Shown: positions 9,455-56,425, counted from the stretch's first letter. The stretch: DNA of 64,000 nt from Escherichia coli (GCF_024223415.1 NZ_CP100500.1), one strand, 5' to 3'. Translations and numbers: made by a program. The notes: a model not told the origin generated them from the sequence alone.

Positions 9455-9490
9455 TAAAAAAACCTGCTGGTGAGGCAGGTTCTTTTATTT
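9455..9490 (-). terminator. Intrinsic terminator downstream of yehK (minus strand)
   Basis: Hairpin aacctgctgg/ccagcaggtt with flanking A/T runs. Confidence 0.5.
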
Positions 9491-9650
9491 ACTATTTTCA
9501 GGCCTAACACCACAGCCTGTGCAACATCGTGTTCCAACGAACGAATTATAACCACGGCTGGACCCCGTTGCAATTAAGATAATGAGATTTATAATCCAGG
9601 CCATTGGGACGTTGCGCCGGATCGGACCAATTTGAATTATTTAGAGTATA

Positions 9651-28416: not shown

Positions 28417-28504
28417 TTTATTAACGCGATTGTAAAACTGCCGTTTTTCCTCGTTTACAACGCGTGCGCTGGACATTACCATCCTCCTCTGCGATTTATC
28501 ATCG

Positions 28505-28557
28505 CAACCAAACGACTCGGGGTGCCCTTCTGCGTGAAGGCTGAGAAATACCCGTAT
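28505..28557 (+). ncRNA. 5' fragment of thiM TPP riboswitch aptamer, severed from thiMD by the island insertion
   Basis: Sequence aaccaaacgactcggggtgcccttctgcgtgaaggctgagaaatacccgtat matches the 5' half of the thiM thi-box leader, then diverges into island DNA. Confidence 0.75.
28544..28557. repeat. attL core: 14-bp direct repeat AGAAATACCCGTAT
   Basis: Identical 14-mer found again at 39954-39967 at the other island boundary; both lie within riboswitch sequence. Confidence 0.75.
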
Positions 28558-28643
28558 TTTCTCATTTAGTGTTTTTTGTGGTTCGGGGTTGTTCGTGGTT
28601 GTTTGTGTATGTGTTTGATATATATTGAATTATTGTGTTTTCT

Positions 28644-28718
28644 TGTTTGTTGTTGTTCGTCGTTGTTCGTAGAGCTTCAACAAAATGTGTGGTCAGTTGT
28701 GTGGTCAGTTTTTTGAGG
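28644..28718. repeat. Left copy of ~75-bp near-identical direct repeat just inside the island end
   Basis: ttgttcgtcgttgttcgtagagcttcaacaaaatgtgtggtcagttgtgtggtcagtttt shared with 39821-39895; contains internal TTGTTCGT and TGTGGTCAGTT sub-repeats. Confidence 0.85.
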
Positions 28719-28745: not shown

Positions 28746-29969
28746 GTGGGAAAAGCACTAAACAAACTGAGCGATTCGACGTTAAAAAAATTGGCGTCTG
28801 TCCAAGCAGAAAAAGAGCGTTTTTACTCCGACGGGGGCGGGCTGGAGATTAAACACTCAAAGGGCGGCAAATTAACCTGGTATTTCCGGTACCGAACGGG
28901 AGGCCGTGAGGTTGCCGCAGAGCGGTTAAAGCTGGGGGCTTACCCTGAATTGTCGCTGAAAGCTGCAAGGGAAAAACGCGCACAGTGCCGGGCATGGCTG
29001 GCTGAGGGTAAAAACCCCCGTTATGAGTTGTGCGCCACAGTACAGGAAGCGCTAAAACCCGTTACGGTGAAGGAGGCGATTAACTACTGGCTGGATGAAT
29101 ATGCGAAGGATAACCGCAAAGACTACATAAAGCTGGTGCAACGTATGGATAAGCACATCATTTGCCATATAGGGGCAATTCCCCTTGATAAGTGTGATAC
29201 AAGGCAGTGGATCGCATGTTTTGACCGTGTACGAAAAAAAGCACCAGTAGCAGCAGGGCACGTCATGCAAACCTGCAAACAGGCGCTAAAGTTCTGCCGC
29301 AGGAGACGCTACGCGTTCAGTAATGCCCTGGACGATTTGATCGTCAGCGATGTGGGTAAGAGAGCAGAAATTCGCGAGAGGGTGCACAGCAACAGCGAAT
29401 TAAAGGAAATTTTACGCGCTATTGATGGTGATGTGTTCGCGCCTTACTACAGCGCGTTAATGCGCTTGCTGATTGTGTTCGGGTGCAGAACGGCAGAGGT
29501 CAGACTTTCAGAGATCAAAGAATGGGATCTGAAAGAAATGTTGTGGACAGTGCCAAAAGAGCATAGCAAAACGAAGGTAACGATATTCAGGCCAATCCCC
29601 GATGGCATTTTGCCGTTCATTCAGAAGCTGGTGGAGCAGAACCGGCATACAGGGTTATTACTCGGAGAACTGAAAAAAGATACCACGGTAGCGCAATATG
29701 GGCGAAATGCGCATAAGCGGCTTAACCAGGAACACTGGACGCTGCATGACTTTCGCCACACGTTTACAACGATGCTGAACGATTTAGGTGTCGATCCGCA
29801 TATCGTGGAGCACATCACAGCGCATCAGATGCCCGGTCAGCAAAAAACCTATAACCATTCACGCTATTTACAGGCGAAGCGAGACGCTCTGAATCTGTGG
29901 GTTGAGCGCCTCGATGTGCTGGCTGGAAATCATGAAAATATTGTCATATTAAGGGCTGAAAATGAATAA
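28746..29969 (+). CDS. int: Tyrosine recombinase, P4-type integrase
   Basis: N-terminal arm-binding-like segment (SDGGGLEIKHSKGGKLTWYFRYR) and C-terminal catalytic region (HDFRHTFTT...); apparent GTG start. Confidence 0.9.
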   Translation: MGKALNKLSDSTLKKLASVQAEKERFYSDGGGLEIKHSKGGKLTWYFRYRTGGREVAAERLKLGAYPELSLKAAREKRAQCRAWLAEGKNPRYELCATVQEALKPVTVKEAINYWLDEYAKDNRKDYIKLVQRMDKHIICHIGAIPLDKCDTRQWIACFDRVRKKAPVAAGHVMQTCKQALKFCRRRRYAFSNALDDLIVSDVGKRAEIRERVHSNSELKEILRAIDGDVFAPYYSALMRLLIVFGCRTAEVRLSEIKEWDLKEMLWTVPKEHSKTKVTIFRPIPDGILPFIQKLVEQNRHTGLLLGELKKDTTVAQYGRNAHKRLNQEHWTLHDFRHTFTTMLNDLGVDPHIVEHITAHQMPGQQKTYNHSRYLQAKRDALNLWVERLDVLAGNHENIVILRAENE

Positions 29970-30747
29970 TCTGGGCCGTGTATATCATACGCTGCCAATG
30001 GCAGCTAAAAAAATGGGATGTACTGTAGAGGATATTCTACATTTTGGTGCAACTAACCGACTTGAAATATGTGCGTATATTGATGATATTGAACAGAGAA
30101 AAGATTATTGCACTTTTAATGTGTTTTTTGATAATGAAGATAGCGAGAATAGTTTTTCTAAAACTATAAATAAATATAATTCCATATTTACTGACATGTA
30201 TGAAATATCATTGTTTAATTATAATGATGAGTTTTGTGTTGATGATGAGCGTATGGTTATTGAAGGTTTGTATGCTAATCATATGAAAGGCTTTTTTGCA
30301 ATACCATCTGAATTTCTTGTCGAAGTTGAATTGTCAAGTGCCTGTGAAATCATAAATCTATCGCCTCGTTATTTATATACACCGAAAGGTTATGGTGATT
30401 ATATTCGGTTGGATAGTATAGAAGGTCTTTCTATTCCAGAAAACAGGCTCGTGATATTCGATAGTGAGATATCGGGTTTTAATTATCAAAAGAAACCTAA
30501 ATATGCCGGAGGTGAAAGAGAATCACCTAAAACCAGAGCTAAAAAAGCCGAGATAATACCTGCTCTCATAAAACTGATCCCTGAGATGCAAGATGTGGAT
30601 TTGGAGGATACACCCGTATCCAAAATTGCAGAAATGATAGAGGTTATTGCTGCACAAAGAGGGGTTGAGTTACCTAGCACTCACAGGCAGACATGGCAGA
30701 AATATTTAGGGCGTGATGCTGGTGACGTTCCAAAACGTCAAAAGTGA
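29962..30747 (+). CDS. Hypothetical cargo protein, AT-rich, translationally coupled to int
   Basis: 261-aa ORF overlapping int stop by 8 bp; noticeably lower GC than flanks; no motif recognised. Confidence 0.6.
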   Translation: MNNLGRVYHTLPMAAKKMGCTVEDILHFGATNRLEICAYIDDIEQRKDYCTFNVFFDNEDSENSFSKTINKYNSIFTDMYEISLFNYNDEFCVDDERMVIEGLYANHMKGFFAIPSEFLVEVELSSACEIINLSPRYLYTPKGYGDYIRLDSIEGLSIPENRLVIFDSEISGFNYQKKPKYAGGERESPKTRAKKAEIIPALIKLIPEMQDVDLEDTPVSKIAEMIEVIAAQRGVELPSTHRQTWQKYLGRDAGDVPKRQK

Positions 30748-30837: not shown

Positions 30838-31062
30838 ATGAATCAAAATACACAATTTCAATCACTATCAGATCGCGTAATCCGTGAGGATGAATGCCGT
30901 AAGTTAACAGGAGTGTGCCGCACTACACGCTACGAACTGGAGAAAAAAGGGAGCTTTCCGTCTCGCCGTAATCTTGGTGGGCGTTCTGTAGGTTGGCTGC
31001 TGTCCGAGGTTATGGAATGGGTTAAAAGCCGGGATCGCATTAATTCAGGCAAGGCAGCGTAA
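30838..31062 (+). CDS. alpA: AlpA-family phage transcriptional regulator
   Basis: 74-aa small HTH protein with typical AlpA-like pattern (SDRVIREDECRKLTGVCRTTRYELEKKGSFP). Confidence 0.8.
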   Translation: MNQNTQFQSLSDRVIREDECRKLTGVCRTTRYELEKKGSFPSRRNLGGRSVGWLLSEVMEWVKSRDRINSGKAA

Positions 31063-31200
31063 AGGGGAGTATATGACACATAAAACAAAGGCGACCGGGG
31101 GCGGTCGCCAATGGGAAAACACTAAACATAAGCCCGGCCATCATAGCGATTTGCTGGCTGGTGGGCAATGTGTCCAGTGTGGTGGCTTGCTGGTGGATTG

Positions 31201-31428
31201 TCAGCCAGGCGGTCGGTTTTTGCCGGATTTAAGCCGCCGTGGGTATTTATCGACAAAATCTTCAAGGGCAAATTTTTCTGGTGGCACTAAGCGCGGCGCT
31301 GGTGGTGGTATTTTTGTTCTGGTTAGTTCTTCCTCAAGTCTGGCGCAGGCTTCTGACTGCCTTTGCCGGATGATTTCATCATCTTGCGTTTGCGTGTCTT
31401 GTATTGGTGATAGTGTGTTGTTGGTCAT
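31201..31428 (-). CDS. Hypothetical protein, second gene of leftward operon
   Basis: 75-aa ORF downstream of the RHH-like gene on the minus strand, followed by a hairpin at 31094-31112. Confidence 0.45.
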   Translation of the reverse strand: MTNNTLSPIQDTQTQDDEIIRQRQSEACARLEEELTRTKIPPPAPRLVPPEKFALEDFVDKYPRRLKSGKNRPPG

Positions 31429-31485
31429 GATACTGCCCTGTAAAGCAATGCGCCGTAGTACCTCACACCACGGCGCTGATAGTGA

Positions 31486-31683
31486 TTATTCTGATTCTTT
31501 GGCCTTGCGGCGCTGTTCATATTTTAATTTGCGTCCACAGGCATCTAAGACCCATGCGGAAAAATTAGCACTAGGATTAGTTAATTTTTCTTGTTCAACG
31601 CTGGCATCAATCCCATCTATAAGCTCATGTGGGAATCGAATATTTTTCTTTGCTGATTTGTTGTTTGTGTTACCACTAGACAT
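31486..31683 (-). CDS. Putative ribbon-helix-helix DNA-binding protein, candidate island repressor
   Basis: 65-aa ORF; N-terminal KKNIRFPHELIDGID resembles the beta-strand/helix of CopG/Arc-type RHH proteins; divergent from rightward operon. Confidence 0.45.
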   Translation of the reverse strand: MSSGNTNNKSAKKNIRFPHELIDGIDASVEQEKLTNPSANFSAWVLDACGRKLKYEQRRKAKESE

Positions 31684-31710
31684 TGATGCACCTCACTTAA
31701 ATGGACTTTA

Positions 31711-31790
31711 TGGGCGCACACAATACAGCAAAAAAAGTGAGAAGTTAAGTATTGACATGTGCGCACACATGATTCTAATCTGTGCGCACA
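31711..31790. promoter_or_regulatory. Divergent promoter/operator region with three copies of palindrome TGTGCGCACA
   Basis: tgggcgcaca (31711-31720), tgtgcgcaca (31758-31767), tgtgcgcaca (31781-31790); TTGACA at 31752-31757 immediately precedes the second site. Confidence 0.55.
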
Positions 31791-31882
31791 GTTTGGGTTG
31801 CATTGCTCAAATTAAGCAACGCCCCGCAGTGCTCGCAACACATGCAGGGCGTCTAACCAAACCGTTAATAGGAGTAACGATT

Positions 31883-32083
31883 ATGGCTGGAACACAGCAT
31901 ACCCCACGCCTTGCGCACACACAAACCGCCTTTGTGTGGCGTTTTCTGGCACTGAGTGCCGGAGAATCTCAAATTATCCACGTAACCGCCTGGACGGAAC
32001 GCGAAGCGCGTAACCGTTGCCCGTCCGGTTGTGTCGCTGTATTCGCCGCCCGTATCCGTCAGGGGGAAACCTATGCACAATAA
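31883..32083 (+). CDS. Small protein, possibly Icd-like (host cell division inhibitor family)
   Basis: 67-aa ORF with good RBS (aggag), first gene of rightward operon; family assignment from memory of similar small P4-like proteins, weak. Confidence 0.4.
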   Translation: MAGTQHTPRLAHTQTAFVWRFLALSAGESQIIHVTAWTEREARNRCPSGCVAVFAARIRQGETYAQ

Positions 32084-32528: not shown

Positions 32529-32828
32529 ATGAAAAATAAAAATTCTGGCGTTAATGCCAGCGGCCCCGCTCGGCCTGAATTTATGAACGGCGATATTTAC
32601 CGCGACCAGTACGGCGGCACGGTAACGATTAAAGGCGTGGAGGAACGGCGCATCACTTACCGCCGTGAAGGCTACGAATATGATTGCGTGATGCCTGTTT
32701 ATCAGTTCCGGCGTGATTTTTCTCTGGTACAGGCAGCGCCCCGCAGTAAACCAACCAGCAGGGAGAAAGCACGCGCCAATATTCAGGAAATAAAAAAGAT
32801 GCTTAACGTATTCAGGGGTAAAAAATGA
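32529..32828 (+). CDS. Hypothetical protein
   Basis: 99-aa ORF, ATGA-coupled to the primase gene. Confidence 0.45.
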   Translation: MKNKNSGVNASGPARPEFMNGDIYRDQYGGTVTIKGVEERRITYRREGYEYDCVMPVYQFRRDFSLVQAAPRSKPTSREKARANIQEIKKMLNVFRGKK

Positions 32829-34573
32829 AACTGGCACCGAACGTAAAAAAACAGCCGCGTGGAATAAAACACAAAGACACAGAGGTGATTATCTTTGCGG
32901 GTAGTGATGCCTGGGCGCACGCGAAACAGTGGCAGGAACAGGACGGCCCCGCATCCGGCGATGATGTGCCGCCTGTGTGGCTCGGGCCAAATCAGCTTGC
33001 TGAACTGGATGCACTGAAAATTGTACCGGAGGGAAAAAAACGCGTAAGGCTGTACAGGGCCGGAGAACTGGATTTGGTGGAGACCAAAAAGATTGGTCAG
33101 AAGCTGGCGGCGGCAGATATTCAGGATGCGAATTTTTACTCTGAAGGAATGCACGGCCAGAAGGTGCAGAACTGGCGGCGCTATCTGAGTGCTGAGCGTG
33201 AAAATATTGCCGCAGGGCTTACCATGCCGGAACAGAAAAAAGCACAACTTTCACAGATGGCAGACAGTGAACGGGCACAGCTTCTTTCTTCCCGCTTTGA
33301 TGGTGTCTGCGTCCATGCAGAAAGTGAAATCGTTCACGTATGGCGCGGCGGGGTATGGTGTCCGGTCAGCACAATGGAACTTAGCCGCGAAATGGTGGCG
33401 ATCTATTCAGAGCACAGGGCCACTTTCAGCAAGCGCGTAATCAATAACGCCGTGGAAGCGTTAAAAGTTATTGCCGAACCAATGGGCGAGCCGTCCGGCG
33501 ATTTGCTGCCGTTCGCCAATGGTGCGCTTGACCTGAAAACGGGGGAATTTTCCCCGCACACGCCGGAGAACTGGATCACCACGCACAACGGCATTGAGTA
33601 CACGCCACCAGCACCAGGGGAGAATATCTGCGACAACGCGCCAAACTTTCATAAATGGCTTGAGCACGCAGCCGGAAAAGACCCGCGCAAGATGATGCGT
33701 ATATGTGCCGCGCTGTACATGATTATGGCGAACCGGTACGACTGGCAGATGTTTATTGAGGCCACCGGAGACGGCGGGAGCGGCAAAAGTACATTCACAC
33801 ACATAGCCAGCCTTCTGGCAGGGAAACAGAACACGGTAAGCGCTGAGATGACATCGCTTGATGATGCTGGTGGGCGTGCGCAGGTTGTCGGGAGTCGGCT
33901 TATTGTCCTGGCAGACCAGCCGAAATATACAGGCGAAGGAACGGGCATCAAGAAAATCACGGGCGGAGACCCCGTGGAAATAAACCCGAAATATGAGAAG
34001 CGTTTTACGGCGGTAATCAGGGCGGTGGTGCTGGCTACCAACAATAACCCGATGATATTCACCGAACGGGCCGGAGGTGTGTCACGTCGTCGCGTAATTT
34101 TCCGTTTCGACAATATCGTCAGTGAGGCTGAAAAAGACAGGGAGCTACCGGAAAAGATTGCGGCTGAAATCCCTGTCATTATCCGCCGCTTGCTGGCGAA
34201 CTTTGCCGACCCTGAAAAGGCACGGGCTTTACTCATTGAACAGCGAGACGGTGATGAAGCTCTGGCAATAAAGCAACAGACGGATCCGGTTATTGAGTTT
34301 TGCCAGTTTCTGAATTTTCTGGAGGAAGCGCGCGGCCTGATGATGGGCGGCGGCGGTGACTCTTCCAGGTACACGACCAGAAACAGCCTTTACCGCGTCT
34401 ATCTGGCGTTTATGGCGTATGCAGGCAGGAGCAAACCGCTAAACGTAAATGACTTTGGCAAGGCTATGAAGCCAGCGGCGAAAGTTTACGGACATGAATA
34501 TATAACGCGCAGGATTAAAGGGTTTACGCAAACCAACGTGACAACAACAGACGACTGCGACGCGTTTTTATAA
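32825..34573 (+). CDS. Phage/plasmid primase, P4 family (NTPase/helicase domain)
   Basis: 582-aa ORF with Walker A GDGGSGKST and D5/P4-alpha-like C-terminal NTPase architecture. Confidence 0.8.
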   Translation: MKLAPNVKKQPRGIKHKDTEVIIFAGSDAWAHAKQWQEQDGPASGDDVPPVWLGPNQLAELDALKIVPEGKKRVRLYRAGELDLVETKKIGQKLAAADIQDANFYSEGMHGQKVQNWRRYLSAERENIAAGLTMPEQKKAQLSQMADSERAQLLSSRFDGVCVHAESEIVHVWRGGVWCPVSTMELSREMVAIYSEHRATFSKRVINNAVEALKVIAEPMGEPSGDLLPFANGALDLKTGEFSPHTPENWITTHNGIEYTPPAPGENICDNAPNFHKWLEHAAGKDPRKMMRICAALYMIMANRYDWQMFIEATGDGGSGKSTFTHIASLLAGKQNTVSAEMTSLDDAGGRAQVVGSRLIVLADQPKYTGEGTGIKKITGGDPVEINPKYEKRFTAVIRAVVLATNNNPMIFTERAGGVSRRRVIFRFDNIVSEAEKDRELPEKIAAEIPVIIRRLLANFADPEKARALLIEQRDGDEALAIKQQTDPVIEFCQFLNFLEEARGLMMGGGGDSSRYTTRNSLYRVYLAFMAYAGRSKPLNVNDFGKAMKPAAKVYGHEYITRRIKGFTQTNVTTTDDCDAFL

Positions 34574-35809: not shown

Positions 35810-35815
35810 GCACAC

Positions 35816-35839
35816 AGCCGGAGCAATCCGGCTTTTTTG
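35816..35839 (+). terminator. Intrinsic terminator
   Basis: agccggagcaatccggc followed by TTTTTT. Confidence 0.6.
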
Positions 35840-36050: not shown

Positions 36051-36257
36051 ATGGCAGAAGAGAAAAAAGGCGGGGTGACGGTCTACATAAGCCCCGACAT
36101 CGTGGAGGCGCTCAAGGAACGCCACCAGCAGAATGTAAAAGCAGGCATTGCGGCAGGACTTGATCCGCTGGCGATGGTTGAGCCGTCAACAGGCTGGCAG
36201 GTGCGTACCTATTTACGTGCGGCGCTGGGTATCAATCAGGTTCACGGAGGTGAATAA
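36051..36257 (+). CDS. Hypothetical small protein, first gene of capsid operon
   Basis: 68-aa ORF with RBS, stop overlaps capsid gene start. Confidence 0.45.
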   Translation: MAEEKKGGVTVYISPDIVEALKERHQQNVKAGIAAGLDPLAMVEPSTGWQVRTYLRAALGINQVHGGE

Positions 36258-37312
36258 TGACAGGCAAAGCAACGGCACTTACAACTAACCAGCTTTTCGC
36301 GTACCTGAATCGCGGGGATATTTCGGAATTAAAATTCAGTCCGCTGTTTACCACGCTGTTTTTCCCGAACGTGGCGACCTTCAACACCCAAAACATCATG
36401 CTGGACACCCTGGACATTGAAGAGGTTACGATGTCAGCGTTCTGTTCGCCTATGGTGGGTAGTCAGGTCCAGCGCGATAAAGGGTACGAAACCAGCACAA
36501 TCAAACCTGGCTACATGAAGCCAAAGCACGAAATCGATCCAACAAAGACCATCATGCGCATGGCTGGAGAAGATCCGGCACAGCTTAACGACCCAACCTA
36601 TCGCCGTATGCGCCTGATTACTGGCAACATGCGCCGCCAGGTAAACGCCATTAAAGCGCGTGTTGAATGGCTGGCGGTGAATGCGGTAACGACCGGAAAA
36701 AACATCATTGAGGGCGAAGGCATAGAACGCTATGAAATCGACTGGAAAATACCGGAAAACTGCATCATACAGCAGGCCAGTGGTAAAAAATGGTCCCAGC
36801 AGGATAAAGACATGCACGACCCAATCTATGACATCGAGCTTTATGCTGATCAGGCAGGTTGCCCCGCCAACGTCATGATTATGGGCGGTGAGGTATGGCG
36901 CACATTACGCAGCTTTAAAAAATTCCGTGAACTGTACGATCTTTCCCGTGGATCAGAATCCGCCGCCGAGCTGGCCTGTAAAAACCTGGGCGAAGTGGTG
37001 AGCTTTAAAGGCTATCTTGGTGATCTGGCCCTTATCGTCTATTCCGGCAAATACACTGACAGCGACGGCACCGAAAAATATTTCCTTGAGCCTGATTTGC
37101 TGGTCCTGGGTAACACCAATAATAAAGGGCTGGTGGCATATGGTGCGATTATGGATCAGGAAGCGGTAAGAACGGGCGCAACGCAAAACATGTACTACCC
37201 GAAAAACTGGATTGAGGACGGCGATCCGGCGATTGAGTACGTGCAGACGCACAGCGCACCGCAGCCGGTACCGGCAGATATTCGCAAATTTGTTACCGTC
37301 AAAATTGCTTAA
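36257..37312 (+). CDS. Major capsid protein, lambda gpE-like
   Basis: Clear blocks of similarity to lambda gpE from memory: KFSPLFTTLFF, KPGYMKPKHEIDP, EDPAQLNDPTYRRMR, YSGKY, YPKNWIEDGDPA. Confidence 0.85.
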   Translation: MTGKATALTTNQLFAYLNRGDISELKFSPLFTTLFFPNVATFNTQNIMLDTLDIEEVTMSAFCSPMVGSQVQRDKGYETSTIKPGYMKPKHEIDPTKTIMRMAGEDPAQLNDPTYRRMRLITGNMRRQVNAIKARVEWLAVNAVTTGKNIIEGEGIERYEIDWKIPENCIIQQASGKKWSQQDKDMHDPIYDIELYADQAGCPANVMIMGGEVWRTLRSFKKFRELYDLSRGSESAAELACKNLGEVVSFKGYLGDLALIVYSGKYTDSDGTEKYFLEPDLLVLGNTNNKGLVAYGAIMDQEAVRTGATQNMYYPKNWIEDGDPAIEYVQTHSAPQPVPADIRKFVTVKIA

Positions 37313-38085: not shown

Positions 38086-38090
38086 GACAA

Positions 38091-38116
38091 GGCCGGAGAA
38101 ATCCGGCTTTTTTTGC
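38091..38116 (+). terminator. Intrinsic terminator after capsid operon
   Basis: aggccggagaaatccggc followed by TTTTTTT; near-duplicate of the hairpin at 35816. Confidence 0.6.
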
Positions 38117-38200
38117 GGGTCCTTTCCGGCATGTGGACCCGTTACGGGGCGTCGACCTCGCACGTTTTCGCTATTTATGACGTTTTTCCGTGAAGGTGAC
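38115..38200 (+). other. Lambda-like cos site (cosQ-cosN-proximal cosB), copy 1, upstream of terS-like gene
   Basis: gggtcctttccgg...gttacg GGGCGTCGACCT cgcacgttttcgctatttatga closely resembles remembered lambda cos (gggtcctttccgg...gttacg GGGCGGCGACCT cgcgggttttcgctatttatgaaaa). Confidence 0.7.
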
Positions 38201-38247
38201 ACCACCACCACTTGATTAATATTTAACCATGTAGTTAAGGTAACATT

Positions 38248-38682
38248 ATGATTGATAAAGCTTGTTTTGTAAGTCAGCAGGAAATAGCTGAACATTTCAA
38301 TGTTAACAGAACCACTATTCGCGCATGGACCAAACAGGGGATGCCGTATCTTAATGCGGATCGCGGAAAGTCTGGCGGTTATCACATCGGGCATACATTG
38401 TTTTGGTATTCAGGTAAAAGCCATCTTCAGACCATCGGATATCACGTAGAAACCAGTGCGCTGGAAAAAATTATGTTTGCCAGGCTGCTTTCATCTGAGC
38501 GTGACGAGTACTCCAGTGAAGAAACAGAACATCGATTTGATGAAGGTTTGCAGATTTACGGCTATTCACCGGAAGATGTGAGCAAGGCACGAAATAAAAT
38601 GGCTGGCTTTCTGGCTGGGTGGCGTCATGCCGTAAGCGTTCGCCGTGCCAGCATGGAGCAATCAGCCGATACAGAACAGTAA
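38248..38682 (+). CDS. Terminase small subunit-like protein (Nu1-like winged-helix N-terminus)
   Basis: N-terminus QQEIAEHFNVNRTTIRAWTKQGMPYL parallels lambda Nu1 KKQLADIFGASIRTIQNWQEQGMPVL; C-terminal part is divergent. Confidence 0.7.
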   Translation: MIDKACFVSQQEIAEHFNVNRTTIRAWTKQGMPYLNADRGKSGGYHIGHTLFWYSGKSHLQTIGYHVETSALEKIMFARLLSSERDEYSSEETEHRFDEGLQIYGYSPEDVSKARNKMAGFLAGWRHAVSVRRASMEQSADTEQ

Positions 38683-38850: not shown

Positions 38851-38930
38851 TCCCGAAAAATTTTCATAAATAGTGAAAACGCGCGGGTTCGACGCCCCGT
38901 AACGGGCCATAATTCCAGAAGGACCCGACG
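38845..38930 (-). other. Lambda-like cos sequence, copy 2, inverted relative to copy 1
   Basis: Reverse complement reads cgggtccttctgg...gttacg GGGCGTCGAACC cgcgcgttttcactatttatgaaaatttttcggg; long imperfect inverted repeat of 38115-38200. Confidence 0.65.
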
Positions 38931-38960: not shown

Positions 38961-39242
38961 ATGACAGAAGCCGAACTACTGGGATTAATCCGCCGCGTTA
39001 CCGGAATCAGCCAGCAGCATGACGAACAGGCCACGCAGCCGGACAGCGTGACCGCCGAAAATTATGTGCGTGTTGTTGCGGAGGTGATGCGCCGTGACGG
39101 TATTGAGCTTAACGGCGTGGATATGCGCGACATACGGATCCGCGTTCTGGAAATGCTGGCATACCGTCGCCGCGTGCAGACGTACAGGGAAAAAGCAAAA
39201 ATAACGTACCACTGGAAGAAGCCGGAACGACTGCGTACGTAA
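38961..39242 (+). CDS. Hypothetical protein
   Basis: 93-aa ORF downstream of cos copy 2. Confidence 0.4.
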   Translation: MTEAELLGLIRRVTGISQQHDEQATQPDSVTAENYVRVVAEVMRRDGIELNGVDMRDIRIRVLEMLAYRRRVQTYREKAKITYHWKKPERLRT

Positions 39243-39374
39243 TACGTACGGACATCGAGATAACGCAAAATTGCGCTGGCTACATCCCTCACATCTGAGG
39301 ACTGATAACAAGCTGCCTGAAAGACAGTCACAAACTACGAAATTTTCGCAGTTTAATTAATGGTCAGCTTAATC

Positions 39375-39665
39375 GCTAACCCGCTGATATTTTCGGAAAC
39401 ATCAATTTGAGGAAGTCGGCGCGGTAACTCGCTGAACTTAAAGCAAAGCGCAAAATTGCGCTGATTACTGGTTGGAATTGTTCCAGAGTGCAAATTTGCA
39501 CTCTGGCCTAACCCGTTGATTATTTCGAAAACCTGCAATGCAGGAAATCGGGGAAGTAAGCCTAAGCTATTGATTGTTTCGAAAACCACCATTGGGGGAT
39601 GTCGGGAAAGTAAGACTAACCCATTGATTCTTCCACAATCCTCAATGTGAGGAGGCCGGACATCG
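39375..39665. repeat. Four ~54-bp imperfect repeats (three in tandem), each with a variable central CAAT-containing near-palindrome
   Basis: Units at ~39375, 39506, 39560, 39614 share CTAACCC.TTGATT.TTTCGAAAAC and TCGGG.AAGTAAG flanks around a variable centre (e.g. cctgcaatgcagg, cctcaatgtgagg). Confidence 0.7.
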
Positions 39666-39820
39666 TGACAGAGCGTGACAACCAGGTAACTAATCTCGCT
39701 GGTGGGCGTGATGTCGATATGGTGATCCCCATAACGGGTTATCCGTGATCATCCACCAGCTTCATGGCAGATAGCCGGAAAATGATAACGGTTAAGCAAA
39801 ACTGCCAGCAAATTTCCCTT

Positions 39821-39895
39821 TTGTTTGTTATTGTTCGTCGTTGTTCGTAGAGCTTCAACAAAATGTGTGGTCAGTTGTGTGGTCAGTTTTGAGGT
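39821..39895. repeat. Right copy of ~75-bp near-identical direct repeat just inside the island end
   Basis: Same ~60-bp core as 28644-28718. Confidence 0.85.
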
Positions 39896-39953: not shown

Positions 39954-39967
39954 AGAAATACCCGTAT
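39954..39967. repeat. attR core: 14-bp direct repeat AGAAATACCCGTAT
   Basis: Identical to 28544-28557; continues directly into riboswitch 3' sequence. Confidence 0.75.
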
Positions 39968-40048
39968 CACCTGATCTGGATAATGCCAGCGTAGGGAAGT
40001 CACGGACCACCAGGTCATTGCTTCTTCACGTTATGGCAGGAGCAAACT
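39954..40048 (+). ncRNA. 3' part of thiM TPP riboswitch (P4/P5 plus expression platform) retained upstream of thiM
   Basis: gaaatacccgtatcacctgatctggataatgccagcgtagggaagtcacggaccaccaggtcattgcttcttcacgttatggcaggagcaaact ATG matches the thiM leader 3' half. Confidence 0.75.
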
Positions 40049-47839: not shown

Positions 47840-47975
47840 ACGCCTTATACGGACAACACCACCCCGTAGGACGGATAAGGCGTTTACGCTGCATCCGGCA
47901 ACCTATGCCTGATGCGACGCTGAAGCGTCTTATCATGCCTACATAGCACTGCCACGTATGTTTACACCGCATCCG
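47840..47975. repeat. REP/BIME-type palindromic elements
   Basis: gccggatgcagcgtaaacgcc-type units and tgtttacaccgcatccggca seen after fbaB. Confidence 0.5.
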
Positions 47976-56253: not shown

Positions 56254-56340
56254 AAAAAAATAAGCCCGTGTAAGGGAGATTACACAGGCTAAGGAGGTGG
56301 TTCCTGGTACAGCTAGCATTTTATGGGTTATGTTTTTCAG
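56254..56340 (-). ncRNA. cyaR: CyaR (RyeE) Hfq-dependent small RNA
   Basis: Reverse complement reads gctgaaaaacataacccataaaatgctagctgtaccaggaaccacctccttagcctgtgtaatctcccttacacgggcttattttttt, matching remembered CyaR with terminator hairpin. Confidence 0.8.
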
Positions 56341-56425
56341 CGAAACGGATGATAACCTTAATAAATGCAGCTGTATGTGATCGGTTTCTAAGAATTTTCC
56401 ATCCGGGAAAAATAATCGAAATTAA

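Follow-up and report, generated by a model that had tools for sequence, protein, structure and literature searches.

Clustered binding sites that serve to titrate a protein are known from the E. coli datA locus, in which DnaA boxes are combined with a site for integration host factor (IHF), and from the incA iteron array of phage P1. In P22 and P1, the phage antirepressors are under antisense control by sar and c4, respectively, and the Staphylococcus aureus pathogenicity islands (SaPIs) use Stl, a protein repressor that is bound by helper-phage proteins. The closest described system lies in the roi and rha genes of phages. Roi of HK022 is said, in work attributed to Clerget and Boccard (J Bacteriol 1996), to bind a site in its own gene beside an IHF site, and IHF reportedly stabilizes the complex. 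A link between Rha and IHF, with IHF-controlled rha genes in phi80 and P22, goes back to Henthorn & Friedman 1995, as cited in PMC4936722. Here we analyzed 64,000 nucleotides of Escherichia coli DNA (GCF_024223415.1, NZ_CP100500.1; the window, with positions counted from its first letter) and describe a repeat array at 39234-39685 in a phage-inducible chromosomal island (PICI). We have very little doubt that the array units are derived copies of the module inside rha and roi genes. Judging from the sequence, we lean slightly toward the reading that the array is a multi-allelic platform of IHF sites and Rha/Roi operators, which would bind helper-phage regulators as a sink or a sensor.

A preliminary description of the region had reported repeats of about 54 bp with conserved flanks around variable palindromic centers, and this was confirmed by Tandem Repeats Finder, a repeat search of the window, and alignment. 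Tandem Repeats Finder returned a 54-nt period over 39508-39629 (2.3 copies, 77% matches, score 153). The repeat search gave 54-nt copies starting at 39374, 39506, and 39560, with a mutual identity of 70-78%. A fourth copy at 39614 can be aligned with the other units over its 5' two-thirds, and its 3' part is degenerate. Each unit consists of a left flank (CTAACCCnTTGATnnTTTCGrAAAC), a unit-specific 13-bp dyad, and a short right flank (..TCGG..). The further palindromes mentioned between the copies were also present, including a perfect one of 24 bp. Since these extra palindromes, read against related islands, are units of the same kind, we treated 39234-39685 as one array of seven to nine modules, comprising four 54-nt units (u0 to u3) and at least three degenerate ones. 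Perfect palindromes with arms of at least 6 bp occurred four times in the array, compared with 0.33 +/- 0.61 in dinucleotide shuffles (0/500 reached 4). The exact IHF consensus WATCARNNNNTTR was found ten times in the window, and four of the ten are in u0-u3, all on the minus strand. The array sits in a non-coding stretch of about 710 bp between the stop of the last open reading frame (ORF; 39242) and the attR core, not in the 450 bp first estimated. The parts of the array are as follows.

39234-39250, 17-nt perfect palindrome CGTACGTAATACGTACG, centered on the stop codon of the c1504-like gene
39251-39283, first unit, Rha type, truncated; dyad CGCAAAATTGCG at 39264-39275
39284-39373, spacer common to the window and strain GF4; weak dyads only, CTGCCTGAAAGACAG at 39313-39327 and CGAAATTTTCG at 39339-39349
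39374-39427, unit u0; IHF consensus TATCAGCGGGTTA at 39377-39389, minus strand; dyad CATCAATTTGAGG at 39400-39412
39423-39466, Rha-type unit GGTAACTCGCTGAAC...AGCGCAAAATTGCGCT; dyad at 39447-39462; IHF core degenerate
39463-39506, unit with a degenerate IHF core TTACTGGTTGGAAT; perfect 24-bp palindrome CCAGAGTGCAAATTTGCACTCTGG at 39483-39506
39506-39559, unit u1; IHF consensus AATCAACGGGTTA at 39509-39521, minus strand; dyad CCTGCAATGCAGG at 39532-39544
39560-39613, unit u2; IHF consensus AATCAATAGCTTA at 39563-39575, minus strand; dyad CCACCATTGGGGG at 39586-39598
39614-39667, unit u3; IHF consensus AATCAATGGGTTA at 39617-39629, minus strand; dyad CCTCAATGTGAGG at 39640-39652
39664-39685, constant GTGAC-repeat segment CGTGACAGAGCGTGACAACCAG, which ends the variable array

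The left IHF half of the first unit is replaced in the window and intact in strain GF4 (L001: GGTAACTTGCTGATATTCCCGATAACGCAAAATTGCGCTGG). The 17-nt palindrome occupies the place that this half holds in the intact relatives (L001, CFT073), and whether it belongs to the array is uncertain. The motif (A/G)CGCAAAATTGCGC is present at 39263-39276 and 39449-39462; the 39263 copy starts with A, not G, and its symmetric part is only CGCAAAATTGCG. The u0 dyad differs by one base from the commonest dyad type, CCTCAATTTGAGG. Unit u2, whose flank is still phage-like, appears to have been captured from a phage most recently. The 24-bp palindrome is centered 22.5 nt from the core of its unit and is kin to the GTGCAAATTTGC units of L023-type islands; a phage search gave no cognate for this unit, and a search of phage genomes gave no match for the spacer 39284-39373. 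The GTGAC direct repeats number two here and four in relatives (L001 14633-14680; L027, L072, and others), and the segment may be a binding site for an island protein.

The origin of the units was evident from comparison with phage genomes. The units are 81-100% identical over 21-53 nt to the roi/rha genes of at least seven phage groups, at the same gene position. All matches are antisense to the phage gene and fall, wherever they are placed in it, 120-190 nt from the start codon of a gene with a Rha domain, in the segment that encodes the wing after the helix-turn-helix of the Phage_pRha domain. The units correspond to distinct phage alleles, namely those of HK629/VT2-Sakai, CP-1639/HK022, HK620, and phi80/phiON-2011 rha. 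By BLAST against phage genomes, u2 matched roi of HK629, VT2-Sakai, and other Shiga toxin (Stx) phages at 92.5% over 53 nt in 60 phage records. Unit u1 is 94-96% identical over 27-32 nt, dyad included, to roi of CP-1639 and Stx2a_WGPS6, and its TGCA-N-TGCA dyad core is shared by HK022 roi. Unit u0 is 88.6% identical over 35 nt to roi of HK620, HK75, and PA28, and also matches the roi-like (anti-repressor) gene of D6, a P1-like phage. For u3, the nearest phage allele is of the CCTCAATTTGAGG type (80% over 46 nt). The GCGCAAAATTGCGC unit (39423-39466) matched a Rha-family regulator gene of Stx2a phages (phiON-2011, P14437) at 21/21 positions in 91 records, antisense to nt 172-192 of that gene, and the GCGCAAAATTGCGC of the window is the same as the dyad of phi80 rha. 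In the first copy, the dyad region CGCAAAATTGCGCTGG (39264-39279) agrees at 16/16 positions with phi80 rha read on its antisense strand. Some unit types are confined to related islands; their matches are roi-like genes of Stx2_EH2201 and Stx1_14040 and, at a weak level, of Salmonella phage SSU5. The longest perfect complementarity between a unit and a phage gene, taken from the alignments, is 21-26 nt. The preliminary suggestion that the region is helper-related fits these data, as every unit appears homologous to a site inside regulator genes of helper-type phages.

The units do not lie in frame inside an ORF with a Rha domain, and indels break the frame. The remainder of the roi/rha genes is absent from the window, where tblastn finds a 17-aa unit match only. 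A decayed roi pseudogene was rejected on this ground; a 58-aa alignment was a repeat artefact that was gone without composition-based statistics. Two observations concern the phage genes themselves. The roi gene of CP-1639 is annotated in two pieces (L083 1198-1365 and 636-857), where an extra T in the T-tract by the IHF core shifts the frame, so that the cis-element survives in a broken gene. In Stx2_EH2201 and Stx1_14040 (L211, L212), the roi-like Rha-domain genes lie directly after cro in the immunity region, not in the nin region, and carry the same intragenic module.

We next aligned 31 distinct island units with 29 distinct segments of phages. The sources of the former were the window, strain GF4, and 80 IMG/VR relatives that were retrieved with the 93-aa protein encoded by the last island gene, and those of the latter were reference phages and 120 IMG/VR loci. 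On the phage-sense strand, the order is dyad, A-tract, and IHF consensus. The dyad has 6-bp arms and a single central base, and its center stands at a constant distance of 22 nt from the first base of the TTGAT core. At arm positions 1-6, 44-55 of the 60 sequences were complementary, and this signal collapsed at positions 7-9 and when the center was shifted by 1-2 nt. Paired cells numbered 304/360, compared with 225 +/- 5.7 when the partners were shuffled (0/2000 reached the observed value). The island units alone gave 160/186 paired cells versus 111 +/- 4.4 in shuffles (0/2000), and the phage set passed separately. Compensatory pair changes occur at arm positions 2-4 (A-T/C-G; T-A/G-C/C-G), and three 13-mer dyads are identical between islands and phages. 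Among the island columns, conservation is highest at the IHF consensus bases TAA....TTGAT. This consensus leaves four positions free, which read CCCG in islands versus GTTA in phages, and the right flank of the island units contains indels that destroy the phage reading frame. Given that the IHF consensus and the dyad are kept in the island while the frame is lost, the constraint is on a DNA site, not on coding. The mean perfect arm was 4.7 bp in islands and 4.4 bp in phages, with only a few long outliers; the idea that island palindromes are systematically idealized over phage ones was therefore unsupported. The exact IHF consensus beside a dyad in every unit (u0-u3) fits the multi-site protein-binding platform that had been among the first suggestions, as a prediction.

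Roi is a protein with Phage_pRha and ANT(KilAC) domains. In HK022 roi, AATCAATGATTTA lies ten nt from the dyad CCTGCATTGCAG, at nt ~126-167 of the gene, and phi80 rha is annotated with "DNA synthesis inhibition in IHF- hosts". Across the 44 phage haplotypes compared, each dyad type was paired with one variant of the recognition helix only.

Recognition helix KRTIET, dyad CCTCAATTTGAGG
Recognition helix KQSIER, dyad CCACCATTGGGGG
Recognition helix KISIER, dyad CCTGCAATGCAGG
Recognition helix KRSIER, dyad CGCCnnTGGCG

The N-terminal backgrounds are shuffled, and identical ones occur in different helix/dyad classes. This association is the pattern expected of a protein and its own operator, and the dyad is thus probably the operator for the Rha/Roi protein of the gene that carries it, as far as a predicted role can go. 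It suggests that every roi/rha gene contains an IHF-assisted operator of its own, and that specificity classes made up of an operator and a recognition helix can be exchanged. No island ORF contains a Rha, ANT, or Bro domain in searches with PHROGs, Pfam, and tblastn; therefore, any binder must act in trans. Because the island has no Rha protein and carries several dyads, beyond the reach of one protein, the binders of the array would most plausibly be phage Rha/Roi proteins together with host IHF.

Similar DNA was found in 981 of 5426 complete E. coli genomes (18%), and RefSeq has no annotation beneath these matches. The prototype EcCICFT073 carries the array, and 38 of 52 IMG/VR relatives have one roi-type unit or more. 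Strain GF4 also has units u0, u1, and u3, and CFT073 has related ones. Both of these islands occupy the roxA/phoQ site and have a different integrase, whereas the window island is at thiM; the GF4 island has a RepA-type (helicase) replicase and the window island a primase. Many islands hold several alleles next to each other. The c1504-like gene is always the immediate upstream neighbor of the array, which behaves like a region of variable cassettes joined to the packaging module. A scan for the island-type flank in one genome per species gave two chance matches only. The check for conservation across related islands that had been proposed earlier was thus positive in part of the family, as relatives carry similar arrays and several have no array. 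In array-less relatives, the GTGAC segment comes almost directly after the c1504-like stop, and the 17-nt palindrome CGTACGTAATACGTACG recurs in three of them (L005, L006, L064). In strain GF4, the array contains a 290-bp insert (L001 14170-14460) with six more short palindromes, for example GGCGGAATTCCGCC and GTTGCAGATCTGCAAC, which had no match in the phage collection.

From the conserved IHF consensus and the allele-matched dyads, we infer binding by IHF and by Rha/Roi, and we consider it slightly more probable than not that the units act as protein-binding DNA in this way. In the proposed mechanism, IHF would first occupy each unit and bend the DNA. When a lambdoid phage with a matching roi/rha allele develops, its Rha/Roi dimers would bind the cognate dyads. 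The array would then be an allele-matched sink or sensor, with an effect amplified by PICI replication; it is because the PICI replicates to high copy that the array could act in either way. A sink is the simplest guess because Rha/Roi proteins inhibit phage growth when IHF control fails, and soaking them up would buffer or re-time the helper program in favor of the PICI. This guess is speculative, with a sensor or an architectural role equally open, as is any benefit to the PICI, and we find it doubtful that the units act specifically as a sink. More tentatively than the binding itself, we propose that PICIs of the EcCICFT073 family may keep a modular, strain-variable library of Rha/Roi operator modules, captured from the lambdoid phages that they encounter, as an allele-specific sponge or sensor. 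Such a library would be updated by recombination or gene conversion with phage genes, as a protein-directed, DNA-level counterpart of a spacer array, and if it exists it would let the satellite neutralize or read out growth-inhibitory phage regulators.

Several points weigh against protein binding as the role of the array. Lambda is not known to have a rha or roi gene. It nevertheless mobilizes EcCICFT073 (PMC6092414); thus, the array is not required for induction or transfer. Fourteen of the 52 IMG/VR relatives lack a roi-type unit, and 6 of 11 inspected unit-less relatives have no array of any kind. In these six, the stop of the last gene runs straight into the GTGAC segment, and others of the eleven have only Rha-type units. 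Because several relatives are without the array altogether, any essential cis role is unsupported. The IHF sites in u0-u3 are predicted from the consensus match alone, IHF is abundant and its titration unlikely, and a sink for an autoregulated protein shifts mainly timing, not the steady-state level. Linkage alone could explain the association of helix and dyad, which lie within about 75 nt of each other. The location of the Roi site in HK022 roi is as reportedly described by Clerget and Boccard (1996). Finally, all units share one orientation with no terminator before them, which also fits an RNA function.

The strongest alternative, although we consider it unlikely, is an array of antisense RNAs, in which read-through from the late operon transcribes the units and each one silences or destabilizes the mRNA of a different rha/roi allele. 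Antisense control is known for the antirepressor genes of P22 and P1. Relative to the PICI operon, the units of all islands run antisense to the phage gene without exception, there is no intrinsic terminator between the last gene and the array, the 21-26 nt of perfect complementarity is enough for bacterial antisense control, and the region folds better than shuffles (z = -4.0). Other observations speak against it. The island flank differs from the phage flank at the four free IHF positions, which costs pairing and is unexpected under selection on RNA, and G.U pairs are not enriched among the dyad mismatches of either strand (13 and 10 of 56 versus about 9 expected). In addition, stable perfect palindromes of 13-24 bp would sequester the pairing segment, no terminator sets a 3' end, and several classes are only 81-89% identical to their cognate allele. 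The structured RNA first listed as an option finds no Rfam family either: with Rfam 15, no covariance model matched 39150-39880 at E <= 1, and the only hit was the truncated thiM aptamer described below.

Considerably less probable is that the units are non-functional relics, scars of recombination between PICIs and phage roi/rha genes that were duplicated later by slippage. PICIs and lambdoid phages share cells and recombine, the array is dispensable in that some relatives lack it, and some units are degenerate (the A/T tract of u3, the dyad mismatch of u0, and the truncated first unit). However, only this piece of about 50 nt of the gene is ever found, never with adjoining codons. The dyad symmetry is kept within the island set alone, the IHF consensus forms the most conserved columns despite the loss of coding, and different alleles stand side by side in many islands, within a distribution that covers 18% of E. 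coli genomes.

The remaining alternatives depend on the structure of the host element, which is an EcCICFT073-family PICI by its gene content: int, alpA, primase, capsid and decoration genes, cos-rpp, and flanking att repeats, in 11.4 kb. The family and the cos-rpp arrangement are as published (PMC6092414; PMC6739421). The features of the island are as follows.

28746-29969, integrase gene
30838-31062, AlpA gene
32825-34573, P4-alpha-like primase gene; SSB and PerC genes are also carried by the island
36257-37312, lambda-E-like capsid gene; a D-like decoration protein is also encoded
38113-38200, plus strand, cos1 (cosQ/cosN), with cosN GGGCGTCGACCT at 38147-38158
38248-38682, plus strand, rpp (144 aa), matching the RppC crystal structure 6HLK (E = 1.6e-33)
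38961-39242, plus strand, last island gene (93 aa), phrog_1561, a homologue of EcCICFT073 c1504

The rpp ATG lies 102 nt from the end of cos, which is the published cos-rpp layout (PMC9026076; PMC6739421). Searches of Pfam, PDB, and PADLOC with the c1504-like protein were without match. An inverted and degenerate cos2 is present on the minus strand between rpp and the last gene (38860-38925; cosN-like GGGCGTCGAACC) and corresponds to EcCICFT073 cos2, whose cosN2 is intact. A terminator-like hairpin (..GGCCGGAG.AATCCGGCTTTTTT) is duplicated at 35812-35838, after perC, and at 38087-38113, just before cos1. Searches of PHROGs, Pfam, and PADLOC gave no match for a 261-aa ORF (29962-30747) that overlaps the stop of the integrase gene. 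A 336-aa ORF (31073-32083) matches PHROG families of transcriptional repressors over its C-terminal ~65 residues (phrog_1743, E = 5.8e-22) and has no match in Pfam or PADLOC.

The attL/attR crossover core is a 14-bp direct repeat, AGAAATACCCGTAT, at 28544-28557 and 39954-39967. The rebuilt empty site is 100% identical to an uninterrupted thiM leader, for which a continuous match (at least 80% covered) was found in 4728 of 5426 E. coli genomes. The preliminary description had taken the 70-nt repeat at 39821-39890 as attR; this is an internal arm repeat. It is 99% identical to a direct repeat inside the other end (28643-28712), and each copy holds TGTGTGGTCAGT twice and GTTGTTCGT twice. These 70-nt repeats are probably integrase arm-type sites, not the crossover core. 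The PICI is inserted within the thiM thiamine pyrophosphate (TPP) riboswitch aptamer, with the 5' half left of the island (28500-28557) and the 3' half right of it (39954-40048). The aptamer remnant scores 36 bits in Rfam versus a gathering threshold of 54.3, and regulation of thiMD by TPP is probably altered in carriers of the island. The other Rfam matches in the window, OrzO-P antitoxin RNA (9456-9531), naRNA4 (47869-47939), and CyaR (56258-56343), are ordinary chromosomal features.

Against this background, a role of the units as homology patches for Red/RecA exchange with the helper, or as an IHF-bent scaffold that aids excision or integration near attR, is improbable, slightly more so than the relics. 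Identities of 27-53 nt suffice for Red-type recombination, the distance from the array to the attR core is 290-720 bp, and att arms typically contain IHF sites. However, the same units occur with unrelated integrases and att sites (thiM versus roxA/phoQ) and with different replicases, int-specific DNA begins only past the array, at 39686, and conservation follows the logic of a protein site, not maximal identity. The proposal of excision control is unsupported, with the same units present in islands that differ in integrase and att site, and an att arm was rejected in that the units do not co-vary with the integrase or site (thiM here; roxA/phoQ in GF4 and CFT073). Packaging sites (cosB-like terminase/Rpp sites) and replication-origin iterons, despite the likeness of repeats by an IHF site to the R3-I1-R2-R1 of lambda cosB (PMC9026076) and of iterated units to ori iterons, can practically be dismissed, given that the true cosQ-cosN is at 38113-38200 with the Rpp site at bp 48-65 of that cos (PMC9026076; PMC6739421), and that the unit cores are unlike each other and do not co-vary with replicase type. 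The packaging control first considered is likewise placed elsewhere, in the lambda-type cos1 and rpp at 38113-38682. No lambda-type cosN (GGGCGGCGACCT-like, up to 2 mismatches) was present in 39234-39685, and as cos1 and rpp lie 1.1 kb upstream, the array is not cos. Iterons of an origin were rejected because the cores differ, 4.7 kb separate the array from the primase gene, and replication modules of both the primase and the RepA type accompany it; being independent of integrase and replicase type, the array is neither att nor ori. A CRISPR array, which would have identical repeats of 28-37 nt around unique spacers of about 32 nt, was rejected as well, since the units are 70-78% alike, their variable part is a 13-bp palindrome, and no cas-like ORFs are found in the island.

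The accessible literature on EcCICFT073-family PICIs mentions neither the array, nor IHF, nor Roi, and a literature search on Roi/Rha with PICI, satellite, or decoy gave nothing relevant. Binding-site sinks are already known in datA and incA; foreign, allele-diverse operator copies in a phage satellite were not found described. Lambdoid and Stx phages commonly carry roi/rha genes, which are functionally obscure and have been linked to an IHF-dependent inhibition of growth. The element is common, unannotated, and present in the tractable prototype EcCICFT073, and the hypothesis that it binds helper regulators is thus directly testable with existing strains and phages.

The array shares features with several known systems. 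Like datA and incA, it consists of clustered regulator sites, with IHF as a cofactor in datA, and would sequester a protein rather than control an adjacent promoter. However, datA and incA bind one self or host protein via near-identical sites, whereas the island array mixes specificities that match foreign phage regulators. The lambda cosB and EcCICFT073 cos1/Rpp likewise combine an IHF site with sites for winged-helix proteins, and cos1/Rpp shares with the array the packaging module of this PICI family (PMC9026076; PMC6739421), but the array has no similarity to R-sites and no adjacent cosN. With CRISPR and antisense control, it shares ordered short segments that each match a different phage, are variable between strains, and are antisense to their targets. 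Unlike in CRISPR, the 13-bp core is palindromic, the "repeat" is itself phage-derived, and no cas genes, leader, or signs of RNA processing were seen. As with SaPI Stl, a satellite feature is matched to specific helper proteins, and the allelic diversity suggests an arms race. In the array, the matched component is DNA, and lambda without rha/roi still induces EcCICFT073 (PMC6092414). The closest likeness is to HK022 roi and to phi80 and P22 rha, which contain the same element, an IHF consensus beside a dyad at nt ~120-170 of the gene. In phages, the element is one coding copy inside the gene of its presumed binder, whereas the island has seven to nine non-coding copies of mixed alleles and no Rha protein. 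If the proposed binding is correct, this would be a mode of interaction between satellite and helper that we did not find in the literature, with non-coding copies of a regulatory site of the helper on the satellite in place of a protein directed at a helper protein.

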